From: Candidatus Dojkabacteria bacterium
Lineage (GTDB): Bacteria; Patescibacteriota; Dojkabacteria; SC72
Assembly: GCA_040765985.1 (NCBI GenBank)
Contig: JAXGRK010000001.1
Coordinates: 8,513 to 72,512, forward strand
DNA: 64,000 bases
Direction of reading: 5' to 3'
The position numbers and the translations under genes are program-made. Under the pieces are notes generated by a model. The model ran no database searches, was not told the DNA's origin, and saw only the letters and a program-made list of their open reading frames with translations. Below, piece after piece: positions 35,469 to 63,515 of the stretch; position 1 is the first letter of the stretch; each line of letters begins with the position of its first letter.

Positions 35469-36041
35469 TTAATTCGTATATGTTCCAGTATTGTTACCAA
35501 AATCATTAGTTTCGTTACTCCAATCTTGAATTGACATCCATGTAGCAGCAGTACTCGTACCTGGGAAACCATCTGTAGGAACATCAGCATCAATGTCTTT
35601 AGAATCAATACCTGCAGCTGAAGGAACTGTTGCGTTGATACCATTTCCTGTACAATAGTAACCTCTTTCATCTTCATCTCCTACCCCTCCAAGAGACACA
35701 CAAACTACTGCTGATTTAGTATCTGTCCAATAGTAAAATGTTGTATCTGTTCCACCTTCAAATTCCCCAGCAGAAAGGTATTCCTCTAAACAGGGGTCTC
35801 CACAAGCGACATCATTTGCTAAAGCTGAATCCCAATCAGTAACTTCCGGATACTCTCTAAAATCGGTCATATATGCTTGAGCTGCGACAAATAATTTGTC
35901 AGCTGCATCTTGATGTGCAACATCGTTTGCCCTATTGATTGCAAACCTACCTGCAGTAATACCTACCGCCATAAGTATAATGATTATACCCATTACGATA
36001 AGCATTTCTACTAGCGTAAAACCTGAATATTTTCTATTCAT
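35469..36041 (-). CDS. pilA: Type IV major pilin candidate (PilA)
   Basis: MNRKYSG|FTLVEMLIVMGIIIILMAVGI is a canonical class III signal with Glu5. 190 aa with Cys pairs in the C-terminal region, followed by a strong hairpin. Confidence 0.85.
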   Translation of the reverse strand: MNRKYSGFTLVEMLIVMGIIIILMAVGITAGRFAINRANDVAHQDAADKLFVAAQAYMTDFREYPEVTDWDSALANDVACGDPCLEEYLSAGEFEGGTDTTFYYWTDTKSAVVCVSLGGVGDEDERGYYCTGNGINATVPSAAGIDSKDIDADVPTDGFPGTSTAATWMSIQDWSNETNDFGNNTGTYTN

Positions 36042-36079
36042 AGTGTTTAATAAAAAATATAATAATTTATATATATAAG

Positions 36080-37319
36080 TTATACGAATAAATTCATAAA
36101 GTCAACAACCATACCCATTACCTCTGAAAGTTGGAACATAGGCATATATATACCTAAAGATATGAAAGCAATTGCCAAACCCATCAATATTAAAAATACC
36201 GGTTCCAATATTGTAGACATATTTTCAGTAGCAACATCTACCTCGTCTTTGTAATACTCTGCAACCTTTGCTAAAACATTATCTAACTCTCCAGTCTCTT
36301 CCCCAACCGCTATCATACTACTTACAATTAGAGGGTAGTATTCACTTCTTGCAATTGGTAAGGCCAAAGAGCCACCTTTCTCAACCTCTCTTTTTGCTTC
36401 TAAAACTACCTCTTTAAACATTCTATTGCTTAATGATAGGGCAGTTAGATCTAACGCTTTTATTATTGATAACCCACTACTAAGAAGTAACCCTAACAAT
36501 CTAGTGAATTGAGCAATCTGCATCTTAGTAATGATGATACCAACAATAGGCATTTTAACTAATAATCTGTCCTTAGTTCGTGCACCCCTAGGAGTATCAA
36601 CCCATACCTTAAAACCGATTACCATACCTAAAATCACAATTATTAGAGCCCACCAATACCCAACAAAGAAATTACTCATATCCATTAAAAACTGTGTTAT
36701 CCATGGTAACTCAGCATCAAACTCAGAATATATGTCACTCATAGAAGGTACTAAAACAAACATCATTAAAAGCATTACTCCTACAATAACAACTAATAAA
36801 ATCATAGGGTAGGTAAGTGCTCCTTTTAATTTTGCCTTCAGTTTTTTACTTTCCTCTAACTCAACGGCCAATTTATCTAAAATCTCGTCTAAATTACCAC
36901 TAGATTCCCCTGCTTCTATAAGATTGATAGCAACATCATCAAATACTTCATCTGCTTGTCTAAATGATTCTGCTAAACTTTTACCTGACTCAAGAGATAT
37001 TCTTACCTGAGATACTATCCTTCTAAAGGCAGCATTTGAAACTTGTTGTTCCATTACTTGTAAGCCCCTACTTAAAGGCAACCCAGCACCAACCATAGTA
37101 GCAAGCTGTCTCATAAATATTACTTTCTTTCATAGGAATACCTCCTATGTTTATCTGTCCAAGCTCTTCCCAATCTATTGTGGCTTGCTCTTTTATACTT
37201 ACTACAACCAACCCCTTATCTTGGAGAATTTCAGCCAATGCTTCTGCATCTCTTGCCTCAAGTTTGCCACTTATTTCTTTCCCTTTATTATCTCTTGCCG
37301 AGTAATTAAATTTTGCCAT
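36080..37319 (-). CDS. pilC: Type IV pilus platform protein PilC (GspF family), one frameshift
   Basis: ORF 37068-37319 (MAKFNYSARDNKGKEISGKLEA) joins ORF 36080-37114 (RQLATMVGAGLPLSRGLQVM...) near 37110-37130. Two T2SSF repeats. Confidence 0.9.
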
Positions 37320-37320
37320 A

Positions 37321-38442
37321 TTAACTCTTTAATAATCTTAATACTTCTTCAGGAAATACTGCGTACTCCTGAGCTTTTTGAACAGATATAACTCCCTCTC
37401 TAACCAGATTCACCAAAGATTTCTCCAAAGAGACCATACCTATATCAGAACTTGTTCTAATTACATTATCAATTTGATGTGTTTTACTCTCTCTAATCAA
37501 ATTCCTTATTGCAGGATTAGCAATCATAATTTCTGAAACAGCCCTTCTTCCTCCTTTATCTAAAGGAATCAATCTCTGAGCAACAATCGCTTCTAAAATA
37601 TTAGAAAGTTGTAACCTAATCTGTGGTTGTTGATTGTTTGGAAATACATCAATCATTCTATCAACAGTTTGGGCAGAATTGTTTGTATGAAGTGTAGCAA
37701 ATACCAGATGACCTGTTTCTGCTAACGTAATTGCAGCTGCAATTGTTTCATAATCTCTCATTTCTCCAACCAAAATGACATCAGGATCCTGTCTAAGTGC
37801 ACTTCTTAAAGCAATAGACCAAGAGTGCGTATCATCATTCATTTCCCTTTGATCTATTAAAGATTTTTTACCTTCAAATACATATTCAATAGGGTCTTCA
37901 ATTGTTACTATATGAGCAAATCTTGTTGTATTAATTTCTTCCAATATTGCAGCTAATGTAGTACTTTTACCATGTCCTGTTGGACCAGTTACTAAGATAA
38001 ATCCCTGCTTTAATTGTGCAAATTGGTGATATATGTTTGGCAACATAAGCTCATCTAGATTCCTTACTCGAGAAGGAATAAGACGAAACGCAGCGGCCAT
38101 ATTCTTCATCGTGTAATAGGCATTTATTCTAAACCTAGCAGGCATATCTCCCTCATGGAAGTATGCTAAATCGACCTCTCTGTTTACCTCTAGTAACTCT
38201 TTTTTCTCGTCTGTAAGAATAGGGAGAATTAACTTCTCTGCATCTTCGGGAGTAATTACCTTATCACTAATCTCTTTAAGCTCTCCATCAATTCTAATAA
38301 TTGGAGGGTATCCTACTGAGATGTGTAAATCCGAAGCGTTGTTTTGAATTGCATATTTTAAAAGTCCATCTATTTCTGTAGTTTCAGACAAAATTACAGG
38401 TGACTGTTGCATATCAGAATCATCATCAATAGGGGTCGCCAA
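37321..38442 (-). CDS. pilT: Twitching-motility retraction ATPase PilT
   Basis: ASDLHI, GPTGHGKSTTLAAIL, VTIEDPIEYVF, QDPDVILVGEMRD and TGHLVFATLHT. The start is either the TTG at 38442 or the ATG at 38412. Confidence 0.92.
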   Translation of the reverse strand: MATPIDDDSDMQQSPVILSETTEIDGLLKYAIQNNASDLHISVGYPPIIRIDGELKEISDKVITPEDAEKLILPILTDEKKELLEVNREVDLAYFHEGDMPARFRINAYYTMKNMAAAFRLIPSRVRNLDELMLPNIYHQFAQLKQGFILVTGPTGHGKSTTLAAILEEINTTRFAHIVTIEDPIEYVFEGKKSLIDQREMNDDTHSWSIALRSALRQDPDVILVGEMRDYETIAAAITLAETGHLVFATLHTNNSAQTVDRMIDVFPNNQQPQIRLQLSNILEAIVAQRLIPLDKGGRRAVSEIMIANPAIRNLIRESKTHQIDNVIRTSSDIGMVSLEKSLVNLVREGVISVQKAQEYAVFPEEVLRLLKS

Positions 38443-38444
38443 AT

Positions 38445-38933
38445 TTACTTTCTTAGGATCTCTTTCAATGCCTTGGGTACTTTCTGGTCAGGAATAATAT
38501 CTTGTAAGTTATTATCAACAATATCCTTTAAAGTACCATCCGGATTGAGATTGTTAATAGGGTTCGCCTCTTGAATATTACTTAAATCTTCATTGGCCAT
38601 AGAGGGTATATTTAAAGTAGAAGGAGAGGGTAAAGGAATTTCTGGTTCCGGAATAACAGGTTGTTGGGTTTGCGGAACAGATTGAACCTGAGTATTTGTA
38701 TCAACCATTGGTTGTACTTGAGTTGAAGGAGCGGGAGGGGTAATATTTGAATTATTATCCCCATTCAAGCCATTTATTTGTGAAGCTAAATCTTGAAGTA
38801 TTTTTTCATCAGATGGAGAAGTTGTTGGTTGAACAACACTCGTTGTTGAGCTACTTTGAGAAACATTTGGTACCATACCCTGATTTATATCTGGATATGG
38901 AATTGTAGTATTTTGGGCAGTACTATTATCCAT
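38445..38933 (-). CDS. Low-complexity Pro/Gln/Thr/Asn-rich protein (162 aa)
   Basis: Intact ORF between pilB and pilT. Its stop lies 2 nt before the pilT TTG. No TM and no recognisable domain. Confidence 0.5.
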   Translation of the reverse strand: MDNSTAQNTTIPYPDINQGMVPNVSQSSSTTSVVQPTTSPSDEKILQDLASQINGLNGDNNSNITPPAPSTQVQPMVDTNTQVQSVPQTQQPVIPEPEIPLPSPSTLNIPSMANEDLSNIQEANPINNLNPDGTLKDIVDNNLQDIIPDQKVPKALKEILRK

Positions 38934-38985
38934 TGTTTTTTATTATATCCTAAAATTTATTCCTTTGACACTCTAAGGACTTCCT

Positions 38986-40754
38986 CTATTGTAGTGACCC
39001 TTCCAAAACCTTCAAGAAGCCATCTTGAATCATTGTAATCATACCGTTTTCTTTCGCTTCCCTTTCGATATCTTGAGCAGTAACATTCTGCATTATCATT
39101 CTACTAATTTTTTCAGTAATATCTAAGACCTCAAATATACCAATTCTACCAGAGTACCCAGAACCACCGCACCTATCACAACCCGCACCTTTGTAAATAT
39201 AAATGATGGGTTGCCCATCCGGTCCTACCTCAGGAACCTTAAGCACTGCAGAACCTTCCTCTGCCTTAGCTTTCTTCGCATTTATTACCTGTGTTAAATA
39301 TTTAACTAAATCAAAACTCTTTATCTCAGTAAGCGATTTAACTAAATCTTTTAACTCTTCCGTAGAAGCAGGAACTGCTTGAATACAGTGCGTACATATT
39401 CTTCTTGGTAAACGTTGAGCAGCCAAAACACGAAGTGTAGAAGCAAGTAGATACGGTTCCATACCCATATCTAGAAGTCTTGGTACCGCGGCAGGAGCAC
39501 TGTTAGTGTGAAGAGTTGAAAGTACTAAATGACCAGTAAGAGAGGCCTGAATAGCGAGCTCTGCAGTTTCTTGATCTCTAATCTCACCTACCATTACCAC
39601 ATCAGGGTCTTGTCTTAATACAGATCTTAAACCATTAGCAAATGTTAATCCGACATCTGGATTTATTTGTACCTGGGTAACACCAGGGACTCTGATCTCA
39701 ACTGGATTTTCTAAAGAGATGATGTTGACACTTGGATCATTTACTTTAATAAGGGAGCATGCAAGCGTTCGAGTCTTACCACTACCAGTAGGTCCAGTAA
39801 CTAAAACAATACCGTTGGTTACACTAAGAGCATCTAAAAATATCTTGTAAGCATTACCCCTCAAACCAGTTGATTCCAATGTAATACCAGAAGTATCTGA
39901 TTCGAGTAAACGCATAACTATCTTCTCTCCATAAATCATTGGCATCACAGATACACGAATGTCTACTTTGACATTTTTAACTTTAACTTGAAATCTACCA
40001 TCCTGAGGAACTCTCTTTTCATCTATTTTCAAATTAGACATTATCTTAACACGAGAAATAACTGCAGGACCAAGTGTCTTTGGTAAAGAAAGTCGCTCTG
40101 TCATCATTCCGTGTATTCTAAACCTAACTCTAAGACGACTCTCCATTGGCTCTATATGTACATCAGAACTTTTAGAGGTAACAGCATACTGCATTATCGA
40201 GTTTACTATTCTAGCAACAGGAGCATTCTTTAAATCAATACTATCTATTAAGCCAGGATCTTCACTAATTTCTTGAACAGGTACATCAACATCTTCCAAT
40301 GCTTCCGTAACCTCAGTACTCATTACATCACCAATCCTTCTGTCAAGAATGAAGTTAACACCATCTTCTGTTGTAATATATACAACCAATTTAGTGTTAG
40401 ATGGATATTTTCTTTGAAGTGCCTGTGTTGCCTGAATATCAAAAGGATCAACCATAGCAAGCTTTACATAATCATCACCTCTTTCAAAGGGTACAGTCCT
40501 ATACTTTCTTAAATTGTCAATGGGAACTTCTGCAATGATACTCTCGGAAACACTCGCTTCAGTTAAATCAACATAGGGTATATTGAACAAAGCAGATTTC
40601 GCCTTAACAATTGCTAGTTCGTCTGCAAGTTTCATCTCTTATGATAGATTCCTCACTCTTAGGAGATCTACTTCTTTCTACCTGTACACGGATAGCATCT
40701 GTGTCAGTAATAACTCCTTGTTTTTGTAAATATGTAAGCAGTGTTTCTCGAGCC
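38986..40754 (-). CDS. pilB: Type IV pilus extension ATPase PilB (GspE family), one N-terminal frameshift
   Basis: GPTGSGKTRTL, LENPVEI, RQDPDVVMVGEIRD, TGHLVLSTLHT, and the C-terminal zinc motif CTHC...CDRCGGSG. The GTG at 40754 gives MARETLLTYLQKQGVITDTDAIRV, which joins ORF 38986-40635 near 40640. Confidence 0.92.
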
Positions 40755-48218: not shown

Positions 48219-48881
48219 GTGATAATGTATAGATATATGAAAAAGCAAGAGAAACTTTCTAAGCTATTAAATATATATCAAGGATTTGGTTTTCTTCTCA
48301 TCTTTATTACTCTAGTACTTGTAGCTATACCCATCTACCCATATATCTGGTATAGGATTAATCCAGATGCAGTAGGTGATGATGAAGAAAAAATTGTTAA
48401 AGTTATTACGGAAGAAGAAATTTCTCCTAAAGAAGATACCCCTATGGAAGAGAAACAACCACCTCCCTTTGATCCTAATCTCCCAGAGGGATATTTTGTC
48501 TTAATACCTAGTATTGAAGTTAATTCCCCGATAACAGCTACAAAGGACTACAAAAAAGCTCTACTTAAGGGCACATGGATAGTTTCTGATTACGGAACAC
48601 CCGAATTAGACGAATTACCCATAATATTAGCAGCTCATAGATTTGGATATACAAGTTGGAGTAATGAAAAAAGAAATCTAATATCCTTTTTTAATCTTCC
48701 TAAAACCGTAGTAGGAGAGAAAGTAAGTATATACTGGAACCAAAGAGAGTATATATATGAAATATATGCATTAGAAGAGAATACATATATCTCTGATTAT
48801 ACTGCAGATTTAATACTGTATACCTGTAAATATTATAACTCCCCAGAAAGAATATTTAGGTATGCAAATAGAGTTAACTAA
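48219..48881 (+). CDS. Sortase family transpeptidase (second copy)
   Basis: TM FGFLLIFITLVLVAIPIY, ILAAHRFGY (catalytic His) and DLILYTCKYY (TLxTC-type Cys). Confidence 0.8.
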   Translation: MIMYRYMKKQEKLSKLLNIYQGFGFLLIFITLVLVAIPIYPYIWYRINPDAVGDDEEKIVKVITEEEISPKEDTPMEEKQPPPFDPNLPEGYFVLIPSIEVNSPITATKDYKKALLKGTWIVSDYGTPELDELPIILAAHRFGYTSWSNEKRNLISFFNLPKTVVGEKVSIYWNQREYIYEIYALEENTYISDYTADLILYTCKYYNSPERIFRYANRVN

Positions 48882-50661: not shown

Positions 50662-51414
50662 ATGAAAATATCTTTGGTTATACCAACATACAAAAAACTT
50701 AAAGAAGTGTTAGACCAGTTAGAGAGGTTGTATGGATACCTTTCTAGAGTCAACCCTGATTTTGAACTCATCTTCGTAGTAGATGGGTATGTTGATAATA
50801 CTAAGGATATATTAATGCAATATATTAAAGAGAACAGATTAAAGAAAGCAATAGTTTTAGGTTATGTTAAAAACAAAGGTAAAGGGTATGCTATTAGATA
50901 CGGTATGAAAAGAGCTTCTGGAGATGTAATTGGTTTTGTAGATGCTGATACCGATATCCAAATTAGAACTTTAGCGTACGCATTAAAAGAGATTAAAAAA
51001 GATGATGTTATGGCTGTAATACCTTCTAAATTACATAAAGATTCTAATATTGAAATGACTTTAAAAAGAAAGATTTACTCTTACGGTTTAATATCTATTA
51101 ACAAAATATTTTTAAGATTACCTAAAAACACTACAGATGTAGGTTGTGGTCTTAAACTATTTAAGAAAGAGTTGATTAAAAGAATATTACCTAACTTAAA
51201 GATAAATAGGTTTGCAATAGACTCAGAGATATTAAACGAGATTGGTAAAGTAGGGTATAGTGTATCTGTAATACCATTCTTCTTAAACAAAAATAGGTCT
51301 GATTCTACATCAGCAAATATTAAAGAGGTTATTACTATGTTAAGAGATATCTTTGAGATATCTATGAAAGAGAGTAGGGTATATAACTCTAAATTACTCA
51401 AAGCGTATAGATAA
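50662..51414 (+). CDS. Family 2 glycosyltransferase (polyprenol-phosphate sugar transferase-like)
   Basis: KISLVIPTYKK, FVVDGYVDNT and GFVDADTD (DxD). Confidence 0.85.
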   Translation: MKISLVIPTYKKLKEVLDQLERLYGYLSRVNPDFELIFVVDGYVDNTKDILMQYIKENRLKKAIVLGYVKNKGKGYAIRYGMKRASGDVIGFVDADTDIQIRTLAYALKEIKKDDVMAVIPSKLHKDSNIEMTLKRKIYSYGLISINKIFLRLPKNTTDVGCGLKLFKKELIKRILPNLKINRFAIDSEILNEIGKVGYSVSVIPFFLNKNRSDSTSANIKEVITMLRDIFEISMKESRVYNSKLLKAYR

Positions 51415-51456: not shown

Positions 51457-52191
51457 CTATTTAAATAGTGTACCCTCTCTTTGTCTAATCTCGTGGGGAT
51501 GAAGATCCATACTCTCTTTTACAGATTGAATCTGTTTTCTTATATCATCAAGCGTATTTATATCCCTTGTGTCTAACTCCTTCCCAAACCTTTCAAGAAA
51601 ATCAAGGCCTATGAATATTTTCTTTTGTACTCCTTGACTAAGTTTATCAAAAGAATAATTCTGGTTAGTATTAATTATATTAAAAACCGACTTACTATCC
51701 TTAAGATCACGTAAATCAATCACTCCTCTTTTTGAAAAAGCAAGTCCATGAAATGCGAAATCTCTTGCTTCTAACAAATATTGACCAATATTATCATAAC
51801 CAACTTTTTCTCGTGCCAAAGGAAGTCTTTCATATCTCACTGCAAAGGATTTTTCGGTTCGTCTGAATTTAGTACGATTACTCTCAAAAATGCTTATACC
51901 AGCAACATATACTATCTCACCAGTTTCCTCATCAACTATTTCTTGTAAAGCATTTGGGAACTCTTTCTTTAACATTTCCATAACTTCACTATTGTATTTC
52001 TCTTCTTCATTAGTGAACCCGTTCTTTAATGCCCCCTCAAGTTTTAACGCACTCTCTCTACCACTATATCCTTCAACATAAGCAAGGTCACTAGCTATGT
52101 TCGGATCACTTATTCTACCTTCGTCGTAAAAGGGTTGTTGTGTTAGACTTTCTCCAGTATTATTTGCTTGGTCATTCATCATATCAATCAA
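51457..52191 (-). CDS. Unknown-function paralog P1 (244 aa)
   Basis: Shares EVMEMLKKEFPNALQEIVDEETGEIVYVAGISI and AFSKRGVIDLRD blocks with P2 and P3. Confidence 0.6.
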   Translation of the reverse strand: MIDMMNDQANNTGESLTQQPFYDEGRISDPNIASDLAYVEGYSGRESALKLEGALKNGFTNEEEKYNSEVMEMLKKEFPNALQEIVDEETGEIVYVAGISIFESNRTKFRRTEKSFAVRYERLPLAREKVGYDNIGQYLLEARDFAFHGLAFSKRGVIDLRDLKDSKSVFNIINTNQNYSFDKLSQGVQKKIFIGLDFLERFGKELDTRDINTLDDIRKQIQSVKESMDLHPHEIRQREGTLFK

Positions 52192-52277
52192 AAAAATTAT
52201 ATTAGTATAAGATATAATAATAAGGAGTATATTTCAAATATCTACGAAAGACCGTAGGTTATACAACTCTACATTAC

Positions 52278-53056
52278 TCAAAACGATAGATAGCTTTTAG
52301 GAGGAGGGAAACCTTCTTCCTCTTTTGTTATTTGTTCACCCTTAACAGCTTTGATTCTTTCTTCAATAGAATCTATACTGTTTAAGTCTATTTCAGGTTC
52401 AGATGGCTCATTTTTTACATCAGCAGCATAAGCATCTATTACAGAGAGTATCTTAAAAAGAATAACCTGATTCTCTTCTGATATATCTTTAAGGGAAACA
52501 GATTTTAATAGCGGGTTAAAAGCTCGATAGTCTCGAACACTTTGGATACCATGTTTTGAGAAAAATGTTTGACTGCTAAGATCACTAAGCGCTATTATTT
52601 CCCAATGTCCTCTCTCAAAAGAATCGCGTTTCTTAACATCTCCATATAAGCTTTCTAATTTCTTCCACATGGCGAGTCTCTCGGGTTTAATAAAACCTTT
52701 ATAATAATCGTTGTTTATAATATGAACCATGTCAACTTCTGGTAATACCCGAAGTCCAGAATAATAATACTTCTCTCCTGTTTCTGGATCTTGTCCTTCT
52801 TTGAGAGCATTGGGGAAATGTTCCTTGAGCAATTCAACAACCTCATTGTTGTCTCATCTTCTGTTAAACCTGTTTCAAACTCTTGTTTTTTAACTTCCTC
52901 ATATTTTAATGCACTATCTTTTCCACTCTTTTCAATATCCGCAAGTTCATGAGCTACTCCTGGATCTTGAACTTGTCCATATTCATTGTAAAAATTCGGT
53001 TGTTGCAAACTAACTGGAGGATTACCTTCTGTTGTGTTTATCTCCTGACTATCCAT
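52278..53056 (-). CDS. Unknown-function paralog P2, one frameshift
   Basis: ORF 52715-53056 (N-terminus QQPNFYNEYGQVQDPGVAHELADIE) joins ORF 52278-52832 (LLKEHFPNALKEGQDPETGEKYYYSGLRV, FFSKHGIQSVRD) near 52830-52860. Confidence 0.55.
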
Positions 53057-53128
53057 ACATATTTATTCTAATAAATTTATTATTAAACGATATAATAGAA
53101 GTTTATATTTGTCAAAAAACATATTCAA

Positions 53129-53157
53129 TTGACATCTCATAGTTAATATCTTACTAT
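53129..53157 (+). promoter_or_regulatory. Sigma-70-like promoter upstream of ORF 53187
   Basis: TTGACA (53129-53134), a 17-nt spacer, then TACTAT (53152-53157), about 30 nt before the ATG. Confidence 0.4.
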
Positions 53158-53186
53158 CAACATATTAAGTTAATTAGTGGAAATAT

Positions 53187-53591
53187 ATGGAAGGTGAAAA
53201 TTTAGGTTTAGAACAAGCAAAAGAAGCTGTAAAAGAAGCTTATGAAAAGAAATTTAATACAGATGGAACAGATGTAGGAAGAGTTAAAGATACTGATTAT
53301 GCAAAAACATTAGCAAAGGCAGAAGATGTTATTAGATCTGTAGATTTACAAAACCCAAGAATTCAACAAAGGGCTGAAAATATTACAAATGAAGCAGTAG
53401 TTGGACATATGAGAGAAGATGCCTTAGACCTTATTAGACAAAATTCCAAAGATAAATATCCTGATGCTAAGAAAACACACTATGAAATGGGACTCAATCC
53501 TTTGTTACACAAGATGTCTGAAAAAGAGTTATCAAATATAGTTGATAGACAAAGAATTGAAGAGAAAAGAAGAGAGAGAAGGAGTAATTAA
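53187..53591 (+). CDS. Hypothetical charged protein (134 aa)
   Basis: Intact ORF embedded between paralogs P2 and P3 on the opposite strand. No family recognised. Confidence 0.55.
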   Translation: MEGENLGLEQAKEAVKEAYEKKFNTDGTDVGRVKDTDYAKTLAKAEDVIRSVDLQNPRIQQRAENITNEAVVGHMREDALDLIRQNSKDKYPDAKKTHYEMGLNPLLHKMSEKELSNIVDRQRIEEKRRERRSN

Positions 53592-54310
53592 ATAATTCCT
53601 TTTAGTTTTCGGACTCTATCTCTAATTGATTCAGCATCACTTAATGATTCGTTATCTCCTCCAACAATATATTTCGTTTCTTCAAGATATGCTATTTCAT
53701 TTAGAAATACTAATATCTTTAATAGTCTTGCTTTTTTATCTCCCTCTATATCTTTAAACGAGAAAGCTTTTTCAACATTATTAGGATTATAACTGTCTGG
53801 ATCTCTCATTTTATAGCTAATCTCAATACCTTTTTTAGAAAAATACATTCCACTCTCAGTTCCATATATTAATGATTTTAAAATTGGATCATGTATATTC
53901 TCTCTAGAAATTTCACCCCATTTTTCAAATGCTTCAATCTCCTTTTCTGAGAGTCCATCAAATGGTACCATTCCTCGTGTGTAATTTAATAAATTACCGT
54001 TTCTTAATACAGATAAACTTAATCCTGTTTTGTAATATATATCTCCATTCTCTGTATCAGATGCTTTTTCAAATGCATATGGTAATTCTTGTTTTAATAC
54101 ATTTATTACTTCAATATCGTATCTCTCTTGTTCAGTATTCTCTATTTCGGATTGCCCATTTTCACCATTATTAGTAAATAATGCATCGGTAATTAACTCC
54201 CATTTTCTAAATTCTTTATCCCCTTCTTTTGTTCGCTTCATTTCAAGAAATTGCCTTGTTCTTTCATCTGTACTCTGATCATCTGCAATAATATTATCTT
54301 TAGGTTCCAT
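53588..54310 (-). CDS. Unknown-function paralog P3 (240 aa)
   Basis: EVINVLKQELPYAFEKASDTENGDIYYKTGLSL and YFSKKGIEISYK blocks shared with P1 and P2. Confidence 0.6.
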   Translation of the reverse strand: MEPKDNIIADDQSTDERTRQFLEMKRTKEGDKEFRKWELITDALFTNNGENGQSEIENTEQERYDIEVINVLKQELPYAFEKASDTENGDIYYKTGLSLSVLRNGNLLNYTRGMVPFDGLSEKEIEAFEKWGEISRENIHDPILKSLIYGTESGMYFSKKGIEISYKMRDPDSYNPNNVEKAFSFKDIEGDKKARLLKILVFLNEIAYLEETKYIVGGDNESLSDAESIRDRVRKLKGII

Positions 54311-54420
54311 AGTAATTTATTAAATATTTTATATTCGTAGATTATATCAAAATAGTATGAGATATCAATATTTGTTAACCTAATATATTAAGGTATGTAT
54401 TGCCCTAAGAGTGGGGGATA

Positions 54421-54449
54421 TTGATTCAAATATCGACTTATAGTATAAT
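54421..54449 (+). promoter_or_regulatory. Near-consensus sigma-70-like promoter module 1 in a 580-bp non-coding region
   Basis: TTGATT (54421-54426), a 17-nt spacer, then TATAAT (54444-54449). It shares TATAGTATAATATA with module 2. Confidence 0.4.
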
Positions 54450-54511
54450 ATATGTATCTTAATAATTAATTGCTCATTGAAAAAGAACCTAAGCCCACAT
54501 CAATAGATATA

Positions 54512-54540
54512 TTGATATTTATTCCAACCTATAGTATAAT
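54512..54540 (+). promoter_or_regulatory. Near-consensus sigma-70-like promoter module 2
   Basis: TTGATA (54512-54517), a 17-nt spacer, then TATAAT (54535-54540). Its -35 region TTGATATTTATTCCAACC recurs at 54800-54819 upstream of the GC-rich ORF. Confidence 0.4.
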
Positions 54541-54723
54541 ATAGTAGTTAATTGTTAATTAAAGTCTGCTCTTTAATAAATAATAAATTTTCATTCAATA
54601 CACATAAGTATTCATAGAGAGATATTCTCTTTTATATCTTTTATGAGTTCTTATGAACTCTAAGTTCTTTAAAAAGTTTTAAGTATATTATATAGACTTA
54701 TGTCTTATATATTTAAAACAAAA

Positions 54724-54735
54724 TAGCGTGTGATG
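54724..54735. repeat. Left arm of the 12-bp inverted repeat bounding the GC-rich islet
   Basis: tagcgtgtgatg at 54724-54735. Its exact reverse complement catcacacgcta lies at 55424-55435. Confidence 0.8.
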
Positions 54736-54894
54736 AAAATAGAGTAGAGTAGGTATTTTCAGATTTTTCAATCTGGATGGAATAGAGATATTAAATAAAT
54801 TGATATTTGTATTCCAACCAGATTATTCTCTAAAAGCACACCATTAGGTGTAAAATTTCTGGAATTTTAGAATATCCTAGCTTAGGAGAGCAAG

Positions 54895-55351
54895 ATGAGA
54901 ATACTACGATTTGTTGTTTTCGGAATTGTCGGACTCATACTATTGGTCGCAATGGTTTTTGGGCTCGTTGCTCTTAGGAAGGAAACTTGTCTTCAATACA
55001 AGAGCAGAATGCCAAGCATGTGAATGCCCTGGAATCGAAACAACCGATGTCGAGACACCCTCGGAGAATGGTATTTCCTGCGTAAAACGCATGGAAGTTG
55101 GCCAAGAATCCAGTTTCTTTACGGAAACTTGGGACTCCGAAACAAGAGTTTGGATTATCAAACAGAAATCGACCTGCATTGGTCCCTACTGTTTTGATTA
55201 CTCTGGATGTGAAAATCCTGAGGAAACAATCCAACCCTTCTGTGGCTTGGATATGAGCGCAACCCTGTTGATGGTGGAGTTTTTCGCATCTGCGAAAATT
55301 TCGAAGGGGATTGCTTCCGCTAAACCGAAGGGATACTTATCTAAACTCTAG
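54895..55351 (+). CDS. Small membrane-anchored Cys-rich protein (~150 aa) in a GC-rich islet; one frameshift
   Basis: AGGAG lies 6 nt upstream of the ATG at 54895. MRILRFVVFGIVGLILLVAMVFGLVAL (TM) shifts into ORF 54911-55351 (AECQACECPG...STCIGPYCFDYSGCENP...PFCG; 8 Cys). Confidence 0.5.
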
Positions 55352-55423
55352 CTTGGTTTTGGTACCTGGGATTATCTTTTACTTGTCTTTTGACATTTAA
55401 AAACCCCATTTACCACACAACCA

Positions 55424-55435
55424 CATCACACGCTA
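55424..55435. repeat. Right arm of the 12-bp inverted repeat bounding the GC-rich islet
   Basis: catcacacgcta is the exact reverse complement of 54724-54735. Confidence 0.8.
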
Positions 55436-55536
55436 GAGTCTTCTAGGATTAAATATTTATTAAAAATATATATCCTACTGATGAGTCTAAAGATATTGAA
55501 AAATATTAAAGACGAAAAGACAAAAAATATTACATT

Positions 55537-55565
55537 GAGGACATCTTAGGATGTCCTCTTTTTTT
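55537..55565. terminator. Rho-independent terminator, probably serving the convergent genes on both sides
   Basis: gaggacatc-ttag-gatgtcctc (9-bp stem) followed by TTTTTTT on the + strand. It lies exactly between the + ORF end region and the stop of minus gene 55564. Confidence 0.7.
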
Positions 55566-56387
55566 ATTTAAACAGTTTTCTAAACAATTCAAATACCTTC
55601 ATAAATAGAGTAGGGGGAAATATACTAAGTATATGTACTCCCACCTTTTGTATATTCCATATAACATATTCTCTTAAAGTTGGTTTAATATTTAATTCTT
55701 TATTAGCCCATTTACGAATATCATTGGTCTTTCTAAAATGATCTAACATCTTAGATTGAGACTCTGTTTTATACGTCATCCTATACTTTAAAACTCTATC
55801 CTCTAAATTATGAAACTCTCCTTTAGTACTAAGTATTAAGAAAAATTTAACATCTCAGCCTTCCACATATTCTCAGGATACAAACCAATATCTTCTACAG
55901 TACTTTTTCTTAAAAGTTACTGCTGGATATTAAAGGTTGAAAAAGAAATCTGTTCTTTTTAATATCTCTATCATCAATAGCGTACTCTCTATGACCAGTA
56001 ACAGTACCTTCTCATCAATAATGTCTATTTGACCACCTACTGCTACACAGTTAGGATTAGACTCAAGATACTGCACCTGTTTTCAATACGAGTAGGATAC
56101 ATAACATCATCCGCATCCATTCTAGCTATATATTTCCCTTTAGATTTCCCTTATACCAACATTTATTACATTACCTAAACCGTTTTGTTTTTCTACAGGT
56201 ATTACTGTTATCTTCTCCCCATACCTCTTTAATATCTCTAAAGTCCTATCCTCTGGTTATCATCTACCACAATTATCTCAATATCCTTATAAGTTTGATC
56301 TAAACAGCTATCTAAAGACTCTTTAATATACCTCTCTCCGTTATGTACAGGTATTACTATTGAAACCAAGGGATTACTTTTTTCCAT
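55564..56387 (-). pseudogene. Family 2 glycosyltransferase, reading frame broken many times
   Basis: ATG at 56387 gives MEKSNPLVSIVIPVHNGERYIKESLDSCLDQTYKDIEIIVVDD. Later come GKYIARMDADDVMYP (DxD) and ORF 55564-55779, each in different frames. Confidence 0.7.
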
Positions 56388-56663
56388 CTTTTCTCTCTTG
56401 AATAAATTTAATGGTGGTATGTACCAAAAGTAATATCAATGAATACCCAAAGTATGATAGTAGGATTTAAGAAATATATTACAGAAATAGAATCAAAATT
56501 AGTATTTGAAATATCCCACGCCTGTTTCCATCCATTTATACTTACTCTTGTATCTTTTTCTAATACTGATAGAAGTACACCATTTCTTTTTACTGCTACC
56601 CATCTGAAGACTTTGCTTGTAGTACTAGAAGATTCTCTTTGTCCTTAGGTATCTCTTCTTTGG

Positions 56664-59600
56664 TTACTTTTGTAATGTTGATTGAGATGATTTAAATACA
56701 TTCCTCATCTCATACTCAGAGTACTTTTCTTGTTTCTGTTGAATATACATTAGATTACTCCAAGAGGTAGGATACTCCATAAATACGAATTCGTTTAATA
56801 CATTCTCTGTTATTAGTTTGTAGCTACTACTACCGTATATTACGTTTAATAGCTTAGTATTATTTGCTCCATTTATTACATTTAAGTAAGAAGATGTTCC
56901 TGAGTCTCTTAACATCCTGAAACCAACATTTATCCTCTTTATCATATATTAGGCATAAAGAGGAGGGGATATTAGAGATACTCTTTCCTTTCCAATATAC
57001 AAAGTATTTTGTATTAGGTTTTGTAATTAAAAGATTTGCCGTTTGATTGATGTAGTCATTAGCTACTTTTGGTATAACCCATCTTTAACAGAAACTTCAT
57101 ATATCTTACTTTCAGAATCTAATCTGTTTGGTTGCCAAGCGAGATACTCTGAATTACTACCATTGTAAGAGTATCCCGATTGTCCATTTATAATTGGGAT
57201 ATGAATAGCATATGTATTACCATCATCTAAAAATACATCACTGGGTCTCCATTCCTCAGATGAAGACGAAGCAATCATTGGATTTACCAATGGAGCATAC
57301 TGTATCTCAACACTTCTAAACAGAACCTCTGAGGGTGTATCCTTTTTAATATTTGTTGCATAAAGTATTAGAGATACTCTCTCTCCCTCATTTATAACTG
57401 TGTCAAGGATATCTACACTTCCAAAAGATTATCAGTTAAAAAGAACTTCTCTTTATTTAGGCATGTCTTCTTACTTTCTGAATATATACAGTAACCAGGG
57501 TAATTACCTTTCTCTGTTTCCCAATTAAGTTTTACTCTTAAGATACCCATTGTTGTTGTATCTATTGGGATTCCAGTGTATACACAAGGGATTCCGTTGT
57601 TCCTTCTATACTAAGCCCAGATGATATCTCCTGGTGTTACAAATGTACTTTCAAGAACTTTTGTCACCAGAGCAATCACTACCTTTTGGTTTGAATTAGA
57701 AGGTATCATATCTATAGATCTGAAATCAGATTCTAATACTCCATATGTTGATGTGTTTTGATTAAAATCCATTCTCAGTTGTAACACCTTCCGACATCTT
57801 CGCTTTACTAAATACTGACCCCCCAATTACAAAGTAGTTGTATTCTCCATCAAACCTTCTAAATGGTTTAACTGAGTTATCCCCTTGTACATATGGATAT
57901 GATGGATAGAGGAGTAGTAGTTCCATTTGAATATATTGCTTCTATTGGAAGAGTATTAACAACATCTCTTGTTAAATTAGAAAACATATATGTACTGTAT
58001 CCTCGATACTCAAAATCTCCTACAATTTCATTGTTTTCAATTCTTAAATTCTTCAAATCCATTTCCAAGGGAGAAAGAGTAGGGTACCTAGATGCATCCT
58101 TAATGAAAGTATCCATTGAAGATATTTCAGAAAGTGATTCTGTAAAAACCCTCTCTGTCAAAGAAGGTACTTCAAAAAGAGAAAGCTTACCCTCTGACCA
58201 AACAAGTTTGTAATCAGAGAAAATACTTTTTACCTTCTCCTCATCTAAATCGAAAGCATATCCCTCCATTTCTACACTTGTATCAAAAAGAACATAGGAA
58301 ACATCATATCTTTGCATTAAATAAAGGAACTCTTCTTTGTTTTCAGATCTAACAGTATTTAATATCTCTAGTAATGCTTTCTCTCCAACATTTGAGCCAA
58401 CTGCTAAAGACATATCCATTACAGGATTGGGTATTATGTAAGATATAAATTGGGAGCCCCAGAAGCCCCATTCATACTCCCTAAAGTAGTTATTGTTAGA
58501 TGGAGGAGCGTAATATATTCTCCCCCTATCATCATTTTCCTCAAGATACTCTCCCAATTCAAAATACTCTTGGGGAATACTTACTGCCGCCCTATCTGCA
58601 AATATATCTCCTCTAAACATATACTCTGCGTATACCAATTGTAATATACATAGTAAAACAAAGGATGAGAGTATGTATAACCGTTTAGGAAATTTTTTAC
58701 CAACAAAAAATGCAAAAAACTTTATTAAATATACAGCTCCAAAAGTAGACAGTACTGTAATACATATTAAATATATCTGACCTAATTTAGAAAATGGCCA
58801 TCTTAATACCTGTTTGAATAGTGGGATATTTTCCTGCAACCATCCAAATACCTCTCCTAACGGTGGATTAAGAACCTTAATTAAGTATAGGGAGCCAAAT
58901 CCTAAAATACCCCAAAAAAGTAATTTGTAATTCTTTTTAAATATTCCAAATATTAATGCTATTAAAGAAAGAAATACTGGAATTAAACCAATTACTTTGT
59001 AAAAATCATATGACTGATATACTTCGGCCATAGGAAAGAGATATTTGTTTCCATCCATATCAAAGAGAGTTCTGTTATACATTCTTGCAGAGTTTATTAA
59101 TGTCTGAAAATCTGTTTCTAAATCTATTACACTAGCAGTTATTGTCCTATTTGTATATGAATCAATAATGTCTGAACTTGTTGATAGGGTGTAATGAATA
59201 AATGGTAATATCCAAAATAGTTGTGTAATTAAAAATACCCCCAGTGTAATCAAAATGTTTTTTACCTCTTTCTTTTTTTCTTTTTTTGAAATGAGATTAG
59301 TAAACAGTGTAAAAGCAACTAAAAAGATTAAATCAATAAAAAAGAGAGTCGCTATTACACTTGTTGCAGAGAAGAGTATGGAGGAAACAAACAGAAAGAA
59401 AAGGTTCCCCCAACTATTTTTCACAGAATATCTATAGATTGCTAAAAGTATTAAAGGCAAAAAACCGAAATTAACAATATATGGAGCCATGTTCTGATAG
59501 AAGAGCCACATAGTCCAAAGCGTAGAGAAATATATTACACCACTTAATAAGTACCCCCAATTAAAGTATCTTTTTAATTTACTTTTTTGGATTAAAATTC

Positions 59601-62096: not shown

Positions 62097-63515
62097 TTAC
62101 TTCAACGGATGATTCTTTTTAACAGTCTCTTCTGCAAACTTTTCACTTGCATGAACATACTTTGTTGTTGTATTTAAACTCTCATGACCAAGTAATATCT
62201 GCAGTGCTACAGCACTAGCCCCATCCTCTGCCATATATGTAGCAAAACCATGTCTTAAACTGTGTGCAGATGTAGGTATCTGTATACCTAATCTCTTTCT
62301 GTAATCTGCTATTTTTTCTTGGAAATAGTTAGTAGATAACCTGCAATTAGGTTTTTTACTTCTAATACCTACAAAGGGAACGAATAGGGCAGGGGAGTTG
62401 AATTTCTCTAAAAATTTATTCATCCTATACTCCTCAATCAATCTAATATATTTCCTATTCTCAGAATCAAAAACTTCTAAATTTAATCCTTCAGAATTCA
62501 TATCTCCCGGCAATGTTTCACGGTGTTTCATGTTTTTGTCCTTAACTCCAATATCTATAAACAACTTATCTACATTTCCCGGTTGTTCCTCTTTCTCCCT
62601 ATCTGAAAACGCATACTCTAATCTCAATTTCAAATATTTATTTAACCATCCCAAAGCCCTGTTTGTCATATATACAGCTCTCTCTTTTTTACCCTTTCCC
62701 ATTACATATATTTTACCCTCAACATTTAACTGTTCTATATTCATATTTATCAACTCTGATATCCTCATACCTGTTGCAAAAAGCATCTCTAACATGCACC
62801 TGTTTCTTAGCGCTACACGCTCATCTTTCTCAAACTCCATAGGTGCTTCTATCAATCTCGTCAAATCTTCTAAAGATGCAACCTTCTTAACTTTCTTTTC
62901 TCCTCTAACCATCTGAATTCCATCTGGAGGAATTGGAATATCATAATCAAAATCAATTCTAAACTTTAAATACGATCTAATTGCAGACAACATTCGATTT
63001 ATACTTCTAACATCTAAACCGTTTTTACTTCTGGATCTAGAATTAAGAGGCCTCTCTAAAATCCCCAACGAACCGTATACCTTACCGTAGACTTTTGTAA
63101 GAAAGTCCTCCTCATATACCTGTGGAGAACCCTCTGTACTAGTTTCATCATTTTCATCTTCATCCACAGGTCTATTCATACCACTTAAATTTTTTGATGC
63201 CCTTGCCGGGCCTCTAAGCGCTTTGACATCTGTTTGTATTGTCTTAAAGCCCTTTTCTACACATTTCTCCCTAATTCTATCCAAATCTTTCAAATGATTA
63301 CCACTCCCTAGATACCCTTTGTAATTTAATACATCTATCTTCGTTAACTTCTCAAACTTTATATTATTAAAATGTAAATATACACTAAATATGGAGAGAT
63401 CCCTGGCGTAACTAATAATGGTTTGAAAGCTGTACGCATTGTTTTGTAAATTTAAAAAATACATATCCTGATCAGGAAGTTTGGGGATATCATTTAATAG
63501 GAATGTTTTCTTCAT
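62097..63515 (-). CDS. Tyrosine recombinase, XerC/XerD-like, atypically long (472 aa) with two insertions
   Basis: N-terminal SAM-like core-binding domain (YSFQTIISYARDLSIFSVYL). Catalytic residues in ATGMRISEL, HSLRHGFAT and LLGHESLNTTTKYVH (R..HxxR..H..Y). Confidence 0.9.
   Translation of the reverse strand: MKKTFLLNDIPKLPDQDMYFLNLQNNAYSFQTIISYARDLSIFSVYLHFNNIKFEKLTKIDVLNYKGYLGSGNHLKDLDRIREKCVEKGFKTIQTDVKALRGPARASKNLSGMNRPVDEDENDETSTEGSPQVYEEDFLTKVYGKVYGSLGILERPLNSRSRSKNGLDVRSINRMLSAIRSYLKFRIDFDYDIPIPPDGIQMVRGEKKVKKVASLEDLTRLIEAPMEFEKDERVALRNRCMLEMLFATGMRISELINMNIEQLNVEGKIYVMGKGKKERAVYMTNRALGWLNKYLKLRLEYAFSDREKEEQPGNVDKLFIDIGVKDKNMKHRETLPGDMNSEGLNLEVFDSENRKYIRLIEEYRMNKFLEKFNSPALFVPFVGIRSKKPNCRLSTNYFQEKIADYRKRLGIQIPTSAHSLRHGFATYMAEDGASAVALQILLGHESLNTTTKYVHASEKFAEETVKKNHPLK

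Follow-up and report, generated by a model that had tools for sequence, protein, structure and literature searches.

A conserved frame with 12-nt inverted arms and a predicted hammerhead ribozyme around an exchangeable gene in Candidatus Dojkabacteria

The slot and its exchangeable gene

We describe a segment of a 64-kb stretch of Candidatus Dojkabacteria DNA (hereafter the window, meaning the whole stretch analysed) in which a small gene at 54895-55323 (+ strand), here called the cargo, lies within a conserved non-coding frame composed of promoter-like sites, a structured leader, two 12-nt inverted arms, a predicted hammerhead ribozyme and an intrinsic terminator. The neighbours in the window were, in order, gyrB, gyrA, VanY, GT2a, the cargo, a convergent GT2b, a gene for a membrane protein of ~1200 amino acids (aa) and a tyrosine recombinase gene. 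The slot is bordered on the left by the GT2 glycosyltransferase gene GT2a (50662-51414, + strand; Pfam PF00535), which was syntenic in all long loci, and on the right by a second GT2 glycosyltransferase gene, GT2b (55567-56387, - strand). The order gyrB-gyrA-...-GT2a-slot-GT2b-...-integrase was also present on a 52-kb metagenome contig, in Candidatus Dojkabacteria metagenome-assembled genomes (MAGs) and in all the longer related loci. The cargo gene is therefore syntenic with those of the relatives, and the cluster around it is one of cell-envelope genes (a sortase-like gene, VanY, the two GT2 genes and the gene for the ~1200-aa membrane protein) in a Candidate Phyla Radiation (CPR) bacterium of about 33% GC. 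The phage-integrase-family (tyrosine recombinase) gene at 62097-63515, ~7 kb downstream of the slot, is conserved in the same synteny. We favour, with moderate confidence, the reading that the frame matures and stabilises mRNA independently of its cargo, at a fixed, hypervariable surface-protein slot.

Related loci (designated L001 and so on) were collected by scanning metagenome contigs with a 19-mer that runs across the right arm and the start of the hammerhead, which yielded 32 loci; the contigs derive from anaerobic-digester or activated-sludge samples. Wherever the contig reached far enough, the left arm was found 712-977 nt upstream of the right arm, and the open reading frames (ORFs) between the arms fell into at least five unrelated families, among which there was no Pfam match. 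Their products are small: a cytoplasmic tail at the N-terminus is followed by a single membrane helix and by an extracytoplasmic domain at the C-terminus, except in one lineage, which has a lipoprotein signal instead. All the related loci with enough flanking sequence to judge occupied the same slot between GT2a and GT2b, and loci whose GT2b genes were 96-98% identical held different cargo families. Several types of inner untranslated region (UTR) were present, and the inner 5' and 3' UTR modules were mosaic relative to the cargo family. The unrelated families, the fixed slot and the mosaic UTRs thus indicate a strain-variable, recombining cassette in a fixed frame. No cargo was inverted between the arms in ~25 distinct assembled loci with both arms; all lay on the promoter strand, which weighs against an invertible switch.

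These observations bear on the first-pass annotation of this DNA, which had proposed a recently acquired mini-cassette, either resembling a miniature inverted-repeat transposable element (MITE) or delivered by recombination. The MITE-like form was not borne out: the window contains only one pair of the repeat and one copy of the unit, every related copy with enough flank lies in one syntenic slot, and no empty site was seen. Recent acquisition is refuted on the ground which that annotation had itself named, a syntenic position in relatives, because these hold a homologue or another cargo between the same arms in the same place. Delivery by recombination fits, since the cargo differs in near-identical strains and the inner UTRs are mosaic, but as an exchangeable cassette and not as a private recent import. 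Searches with two of the cargo families returned few relatives; the three source-named matches were Dojkabacteria or Saccharibacteria MAGs, the rest being metagenome proteins, and no other donor taxon was seen for these two families.

The cargo in the window belongs to a family of Cys-rich anchored proteins (family A), whose intact homologues have 136-160 aa overall and consist of an N-terminal transmembrane helix and a domain of ~85 aa with six invariant Cys and the motifs FTETWD...RVW, GPYC and QPF. This family had no Pfam match and no PDB fold match, and a profile scan of viral contigs found no viral relatives. The small anchored Cys-rich protein of the first-pass annotation thus holds for the family, whereas the gene of the window is frameshifted. 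The ribosome-binding site AGGAG is present at 54884-54888, 6 nt before the ATG at 54895, but alignment with intact homologues indicated that there is no single ORF: two frame changes are needed, the membrane helix and the Cys-rich part being encoded in different frames. The first frame opens at the ATG at 54895 and gives a 42-aa ORF with the membrane helix before it meets the TGA at 55021-55023. The Cys-rich part follows in the +1 frame, and for the conserved C-terminus of the family (RICENFEGDC.R) the reading returns to the first frame, up to the TAA at 55321-55323. Of the ectodomain with eight Cys described earlier, the Cys-rich domain with its six invariant Cys stands, and the last Cys quoted (PFCG) arises only from the second frameshift.

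Nucleotide alignment with the closest alleles localised three lesions: a tandem duplication of AGGA to AGGAAGGA within 54976-54985, a duplication of TG to TGTG at 55241-55244, and an in-frame deletion of 6 nt near 55232. Once corrected for frame, the window protein is 74-77% identical, end to end, to its closest intact homologues of 140-146 aa. Because an intact reading needs two frame changes, the window cargo is probably a pseudogene, inactivated, as judged from the alignments, by the two small tandem duplications. Programmed frameshifting was considered and rejected in favour of pseudogenisation: removal of the AGGA duplication restores the family length exactly, and the TG site has no slippery heptamer. 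The first frameshift site reads CUU-AGG-A and resembles the Ty1 +1 site.

The two genes that follow are also decayed. GT2b in the window is broken across two frames (55567-56387), while it is an intact gene of 275 aa in relatives. The large membrane protein, intact at 1194-1214 aa in relatives, has its last ~520 aa distributed among three or more frames (56377-57917, - strand). Three consecutive genes of the window, the cargo, GT2b and the large membrane protein gene, are thus decayed, and the leader, arms, hammerhead and terminator are intact. This looks like the recent loss of a functional module, perhaps a surface protein with its modifying enzymes.

Arms, hammerhead and terminator

Upstream of the left arm, a consensus scan identified two strong promoter-like sites of the sigma-70 type on the + strand, P1 (TTGATT, 17 nt, TATAAT; 54421-54449; 10/12 matches) and P2 (TTGATA, 17 nt, TATAAT; 54512-54540; 11/12 matches). 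P1 was kept in relatives, including the divergent L054 lineage, and P2 was near-invariant across 18 distinct loci and read TTGACT, 17 nt, TATAAT in L054; both were retained in this lineage though the surrounding sequence had changed. A further promoter-like copy had been reported at 54800 (TTGATATTTGTATTCCAACC). It is a true partial copy of the sequence at 54512, but not a conserved promoter, as it duplicates the -35 box and spacer of P2 without the conserved -10 and forms the 3' arm of a hairpin in the inner 5' UTR.

From P2 to the left arm there is a structured leader of ~180 nt (54547-54723, + strand), as suggested by conservation, RNAalifold and a transcription start predicted from P2. The RNAalifold model contained several hairpins with 50 pairs, 6 of them with compensatory changes. 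The non-coding flanks outside the arms had 83-91% nucleotide identity, compared with 75-84% for gyrA/gyrB; the arms and flanks are the most conserved part of the locus, they are AT-rich like the host genome, and conservation stops sharply at the inner edges of both arms. Inside them lie the inner 5' UTR (54736-54894, with the hairpin of 54770-54784 with 54810-54824, and the AGGAG) and the inner 3' UTR (55324-55423, with the motif AACTCTAGC at 55344-55352), both on the + strand.

P1 and P2 resemble a tandem duplication, each with a TATAGTATAAT box followed 20-30 nt later by TGCTC(A/T)TT (54421-54470 and 54512-54580). The second TGCTC(A/T)TT was paired by RNAalifold with an A-run and the first bases of the left arm, and such pairing may sequester the left arm.

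The 12-bp inverted repeat noticed in the first-pass annotation was confirmed as exact: the left arm is TAGCGTGTGATG at 54724-54735 and its reverse complement, the right arm CATCACACGCTA, lies at 55424-55435. Even when one mismatch was allowed, this 12-mer had just two matches in the window, against 0.12 expected. The left arm was exact in ~35 loci, and the pair was exact around the homologous gene in all the relatives of the first round, including alleles at 42-53% protein identity. Four arm haplotypes were found in all, the main form (TAGCGTGTGATG with CATCACACGCTA), one in L040 and L042 with the left arm TAGTGTGTGATG, one in L036 with the left arm TAGTGTGTGGTG, and one in the L051-L059 lineage (TAGTGTGTGACG with CGTCACACACTG). 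Over these four haplotypes, 48 of the 48 cells held standard pairs. Two pairs showed double changes, one from U-A to C-G and another from C-G via U·G to U-A, and the three one-sided changes all gave G·U on the + strand, which would be C·A mismatches on the other strand. Departures that occur only by way of + strand G·U point to an RNA helix between the mRNA ends, not transposon ends, in which the left and right arms would be the 5' and 3' strands. When the mRNA processed as predicted, from start site to cleavage site, was folded by partition function, the arm pairing probability was 0.93 in the window and 0.93-0.99 in 16/17 loci, whatever the cargo.

A second helix may compete with this pairing. 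The motif GACUCUAGC of the 3' UTR (form AACTCTAGC in the window) is complementary to GCUAGAGUC at 55432-55440, a stretch that runs from the last bases of the right arm into the 5' strand of hammerhead helix III. The motif has the form (G/A)ACUCUAGC, and in the L054 lineage both strands differ in a covarying manner (GACUCUGUG with CACUGAGUC). Neither the arm pairing nor the ribozyme fold could form together with this helix, which might serve as a conformer in competition with them.

One base after the right arm starts a predicted type III hammerhead ribozyme of 88 nt (55436-55523, + strand), supported by alignment to RF00008, a descriptor and conservation. Neither this element nor a role of the repeat in RNA pairing had been raised in the first-pass annotation. 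The layout of the type is complete. The open helix III is formed by 55438-55442 with 55517-55521 (GUCUU with AAGAC), helix I, closed by a loop, by 55444-55449 with 55472-55477 (UAGGAU...AUCCUA), and helix II, also loop-closed, by 55485-55488 with 55510-55513 (GUCU...AGAC). The core CUGAUGA is at 55478-55484 and the GAA core at 55514-55516, so that C3-U4-G5-A6-N7-G8-A9 and G12-A13-A14 are complete. The pair A15.1-U16.1 corresponds to U55442-A55517, 10.1-11.1 to G55485-C55513 and 1.1-2.1 to U55444-A55477, and position H17 is C55443, after which, following UUC, cleavage is predicted.

This element was conserved in more than 40 loci, its sequence in the window being identical to that of L033. Across loci the sole variable core base was position 7 (U or A), which the consensus leaves free, and H17 was never G (C generally, A in L007 and L010); L006 had a U·C mismatch at 10.1-11.1. 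In the stems 99.6% of the cells were paired. The main lineage was nearly invariant, with one double change in 15 pairs, and in divergent lineages helix I occurred in three sequence versions overall (UAGGAU/AUCCUA, UAAGAGUA/UACUCUUA and UAAGAC/GUCUUA) and helix II changed from GUCU/AGAC to GUCC/GGAC, that is, from U-A to C-G. Our descriptor (core, A15.1-U16.1, H17 not G and three stems) had this site as its single match in the window, and 300 windows simulated with the same first-order composition together gave one match. The candidate is not called a member by the Rfam criterion, and it qualifies as a hammerhead by the structural definition of PMC3088659.

Among other known RNA families, an Rfam scan at E up to 10 gave only the two sub-threshold hammerhead matches as meaningful ones, the rest being miRNA/snoRNA noise. 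We found no second ribozyme (twister, pistol, hatchet or HDV-like) upstream of the left arm, and our own covariance model (R1) found no second hammerhead in the window. Downstream, the strong terminator of the first-pass annotation was verified as an intrinsic terminator at 55537-55568 (+ strand), with a 9-bp stem at 55537-55558 (GAGGACATC, TTAG, GATGTCCTC) followed by a T run. Relatives carried compensatory variants of this stem (GGGGATATC with GATGTCCCC, and GGGAAC with GTTCCC).

Several loci depart from the simple form. L036 (1-620), L040 (4720-5340) and L042 have tandem cassettes: the first hammerhead lacks a terminator, and behind it lies a second cassette that consists of a leader of 75 nt, a left arm of variant sequence, an ORF for a tail-anchored peptide of 47 aa, a right arm, and a hammerhead and terminator of its own. 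The two predicted cleavage sites enclose a unit of ~545 nt. An insertion sequence (DDE transposase, 356 aa) is inserted into the first hammerhead of L040. The frames of L026 and L043 are degenerate, with the hammerhead truncated by junctions to other sequence, and that of L046 is degenerate as well, with A in place of the core C3 and with its arms, only 455 nt apart, around a 63-aa ORF.

Base composition of the slot

The GC jump that had been noted by eye was confirmed in 200-bp windows, which had a GC content of 0.44-0.45 across 54900-55300 and 0.20-0.30 in the flanks. The span of the cargo gene (54895-55323) had a GC content of 0.443, compared with a window mean of 0.329 (z 2.9), and only 1.1% of the 429-bp segments of the 64 kb reached a GC as high as that of the islet. 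The sole other region at this level was at 22.0-22.9 kb. This peak (22000-23000, GC 0.50) corresponds to a 681-aa protein with a glycine-rich domain (PF21722), and it was rejected as a second islet because its GC2 was 0.48 but its GC3 an ordinary 0.195, so that amino-acid composition drives it.

Third positions and codon usage deviated strongly in the slot. GC3 was 0.40 in the window cargo, against 0.23 ± 0.03 elsewhere; over the cargo genes it had a mean of 0.415 (range 0.32-0.55), compared with 0.233 ± 0.031 (maximum 0.309) in the rest of the genome. Total GC was 0.41-0.505 in the cargo genes and 0.30-0.34 in the rest of each locus. Among the Arg codons, CGN made up 74% in the cargo and 12% in the rest of the genome, and CGC 23% and 0.00, respectively; TTA was 11% of the Leu codons in the cargo and 44% in the rest of the genome. 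Arg was spread evenly over its six codons in the cargo genes, whereas in the rest of the genome AGA accounted for 69% and CGC/CGG were almost never used. The usage in cargo genes (for example 54895-55323 in the window and 6037-6678 in L054) was nearly unbiased, like that of a genome of ~45% GC. High GC and GC3 were common to every cargo, every family and every lineage examined, including alleles mutually 42% identical.

Codon bias linked to high expression was not supported as the cause of these values: the pilin gene of the window, presumably well expressed, had an ordinary GC3 of only 0.215, which makes a simple bias of this kind unlikely, and the Arg codons of the cargos had no single preferred codon. 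Lineage-specific substitutions in family A alleles were 33 from AT to GC and 42 from GC to AT (7 and 14, respectively, in the allele of the window), and our own estimate for a fresh import decaying under the AT bias of the genome was ~3 to 1. The result is a compositional puzzle: each gene in the slot has about twice the GC3 of the genome, and the searches with two of the families revealed no foreign source. The excess might stem from selection acting on the mRNA or from GC-biased gene conversion at a recombination hotspot.

Proposed function, alternatives and known systems

The frame has a defined anatomy, is conserved across the loci, carries exchangeable cargos and covaries in its paired parts. 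We propose that the whole unit would be transcribed from the upstream promoters P1 and P2, and that the predicted hammerhead would cut after C55443 and so remove itself and the terminator, leaving an mRNA that ends ...CAUCACACGCUAGAGUCUUC with a 2',3'-cyclic phosphate; the cut products expected would have the 3' end ...GAGUCUUC and the 5' end UAGGAUU. The right arm would pair with the left arm, the 12-bp helix tying the 3' end of the mRNA to its 5' leader, and any inserted gene would gain a defined, end-protected mRNA whatever its sequence. The competing helix of GACUCUAGC with GCUAGAGUC, as it overlaps the right arm and helix III, may gate cleavage. Cargos are exchanged among strains through recombination within and beside the conserved frame, as would be expected for surface proteins that diversifying selection acts upon; the cargo is probably such a protein, encoded in a cluster for envelope biogenesis.

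Several points weigh against this proposal. The transcription start was placed from consensus promoters alone, and if the true start were downstream of 54735 the left arm would be excluded from the mRNA; the tandem loci, where a left arm lies inside a polycistronic unit, argue against a start downstream of it. The shuffle control of the arm pairing was not significant (95/500) with only four haplotypes, and therefore the covariation of the arms is suggestive, not conclusive. Any 12-bp helix that contains six G-C pairs would be predicted to form in AU-rich RNA, and the high folding probability is not independent evidence. The full-length alignment to RF00008 gave 19.6 bits (E 0.039 in a 121-nt search), below the gathering threshold of 48.5, and RF00163 gave 20.5 bits against a threshold of 34 in a wider scan. 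Helices I and II of the candidate are long, AU-rich and atypical, and the RF00008 score is low because the long AU-rich insertions in loops I and II are penalised. A frame of this kind gives no reason for a cargo GC3 of 0.32-0.55 compared with 0.23, or for 74% CGN compared with 12%. Finally, the frameshifts of the window cargo, and the broken frames of the two genes that follow it, could be assembly errors.

A more elaborate version of the same idea, which we consider unlikely, makes the frame a cargo-agnostic RNA device. The pairing of the arms would displace an inhibitory GACUCUAGC/GCUAGAGUC helix, licensing cleavage only in the complete transcript; in tandem loci the 545-nt unit between two identical hammerheads could be excised and ligated into a circular coding RNA, and the GC of the cargo would come from selection on the RNA. 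If true, a bacterial chromosome would encode a circular RNA with a coding sequence, comparable to viroid-like RNAs or retrozymes.

The arms might instead be DNA sites for a site-specific recombinase, for example the tyrosine recombinase encoded ~7 kb downstream, which would either invert the cargo as a switch or swap cassettes by double crossover. The sharp end of conservation at the inner arm edges, the unrelated cargos between flanks 96-98% identical, the syntenic integrase-family gene and the position of the promoters outside the arms, from which an inversion would silence the cargo, are all in keeping with such sites. We nevertheless regard this as quite unlikely, given that none of the ~25 distinct loci had an inverted cargo and that the inner 5' and 3' UTR types assort independently of the cargo family, and therefore the exchange breakpoints are also inside the arms. 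The asymmetries of the arms are only transitions that give + strand G·U, a rule for which protein half-sites offer no reason. Sites of tyrosine recombinases have two half-sites around a spacer of 6-8 bp, a layout that a lone 12-mer lacks, and the recombinase gene is 7 kb away with several genes between.

It is equally improbable, in our view, that the hammerhead-like motif and the repeat owe their conservation to some other role, such as transcription-factor operators or a bidirectional terminator region shared with the convergent GT2b, with neither cleavage nor pairing. The Rfam scores below threshold and the location between two convergent genes agree with this explanation, as does the invariance of most stem positions, which leaves little covariation to support the hammerhead (a single double change among its 15 pairs in the main lineage). 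The complete descriptor, in contrast, was as rare as one match in the window and one in 300 simulated windows, the only core position that varies is the free position 7 and H17 is never G, helix I was rebuilt in three sequences and helix II passed from U-A to C-G, and in the tandem loci the motif recurs between two cistrons where there is no terminator.

The first-pass model of a recently acquired foreign mini-cassette, MITE-like or imported, with its GC from a GC-richer donor, is very improbable: the large deviation in composition and codons, the exact inverted repeat that brackets the unit and the different cargos of close strains speak for it, but the unit is single-copy and always in the same slot, its arms and flanks are its most conserved part and as AT-rich as the host, GC is high in all cargo families and lineages, the source-named relatives of the two families searched are only Dojkabacteria and Saccharibacteria MAGs with no viral relative of family A, and the substitutions of family A are near balance, far from the ratio estimated for a fresh import.

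Pairing between the 5' and 3' ends of an RNA is known from fbi/tac in hok mRNA, from flavivirus cyclisation sequences and from the processing stems that flank rRNAs. As in those, a short, conserved, long-range helix would here join the ends of an RNA regardless of its content; unlike them, with which there is no sequence relationship, the 3' strand is 8 nt upstream of a predicted cut and interchangeable genes are enclosed. Capsule and O-antigen-type loci share with the slot a fixed position between conserved genes, unrelated alleles in near-identical backgrounds and a mosaic structure, whereas the slot has a single small gene and its recombining flanks are a conserved RNA-processing frame. Integron cassettes are likewise promoterless, exchangeable ORFs with an external fixed promoter and a tyrosine recombinase gene in the region. 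In contrast to integrons, the loci showed no cassette array (two cassettes in L036, L040 and L042, otherwise one), the recombinase gene is 7 kb off and not adjacent, and the 12-nt repeat that brackets each cassette behaves as an RNA helix; the mosaic inner modules point to homologous recombination. In invertible switches such as E. coli fimS and the mpl promoters of Mycoplasma penetrans, short inverted repeats also bracket a segment that governs a variable surface protein, and here too the promoters are outside, but the ~25 distinct loci had one orientation and the asymmetries follow RNA wobble rules.

Compared with type III hammerheads (RF00008, clan CL00010), the candidate has the CUGA(U/A)GA and GAAA cores, A15.1-U16.1, C or A at H17, closed helices I and II and an open helix III. 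It differs in its long, AU-rich, interrupted helices I and II, its sub-threshold score and its CPR host, and it begins one base beyond a conserved strand of the predicted long-range helix; its structure is thus typical of the type, its sequence atypical. Perreault et al. (2011, PMC3088659) described hammerheads in bacteria that lie beside single genes, near integrases or prophages, and the identity of these genes varies; at some of those loci two hammerheads flank one cistron, and processing of the transcript into single-gene mRNAs was proposed, no function being established for them (PMC3088659). The present case is like those (PMC3088659) in that the hammerhead adjoins a gene of changing identity, an integrase-family gene is nearby and some cistrons are flanked by two hammerheads. 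It is unlike their prophage cases in being located in a chromosomal envelope cluster, as a fixed frame around a strain-variable surface-protein cargo.

The literature searched contained no paper linking hammerheads to CPR/Patescibacteria, and the locus was the subject of none of the 12 titles listed out of 901 matches on Dojkabacteria/WS6; we found no description of a fixed chromosomal frame that combines a covarying 5'-3' helix by a cleavage site, a variable surface cargo and a uniform GC excess in a CPR host. The locus offers a testable hypothesis for the role of bacterial hammerheads, namely that they would yield ribozyme-defined, end-paired mRNAs. For CPR biology, it singles out one hypervariable surface-protein locus of Dojkabacteria as a candidate determinant of interactions with hosts or phages in organisms that so far cannot be cultured, and a natural frame indifferent to its cargo (promoter, leader, clamp, ribozyme and terminator) may be of interest as an expression module.

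As for phages, a blastn search of 54300-56300 against phage genomes gave no match, and a scan of viral contigs did not find the junction of arm and hammerhead. Elsewhere in the envelope cluster, the 220-aa protein encoded between gyrA and VanY (48219-48881) has homologues in related loci with a Pfam sortase match; no LPXTG-type sorting signal was seen in the cargo C-termini inspected by eye. A direct repeat of 65 nt (51341-51405 and 52221-52285, 80% identical) duplicates the 3' end of GT2a around an ORF at 51457-52191. Within the 3.4 kb between GT2a and the frame there are four AT-rich ORFs without Pfam matches (51457-54310), which are absent from L001 and some of which have distant homologues (26-34% identity) in L027, L033 and L046; L033 has further unrelated ORFs in this place. 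The interval from GT2a to the frame is a second variable segment of the same island. Far upstream, at 35469-40635, the window carries a type IV pilus cluster with a pilin bearing an N-methylation motif, a T2SSF platform protein and a T2SSE/MshEN ATPase; such clusters are typical of CPR bacteria.

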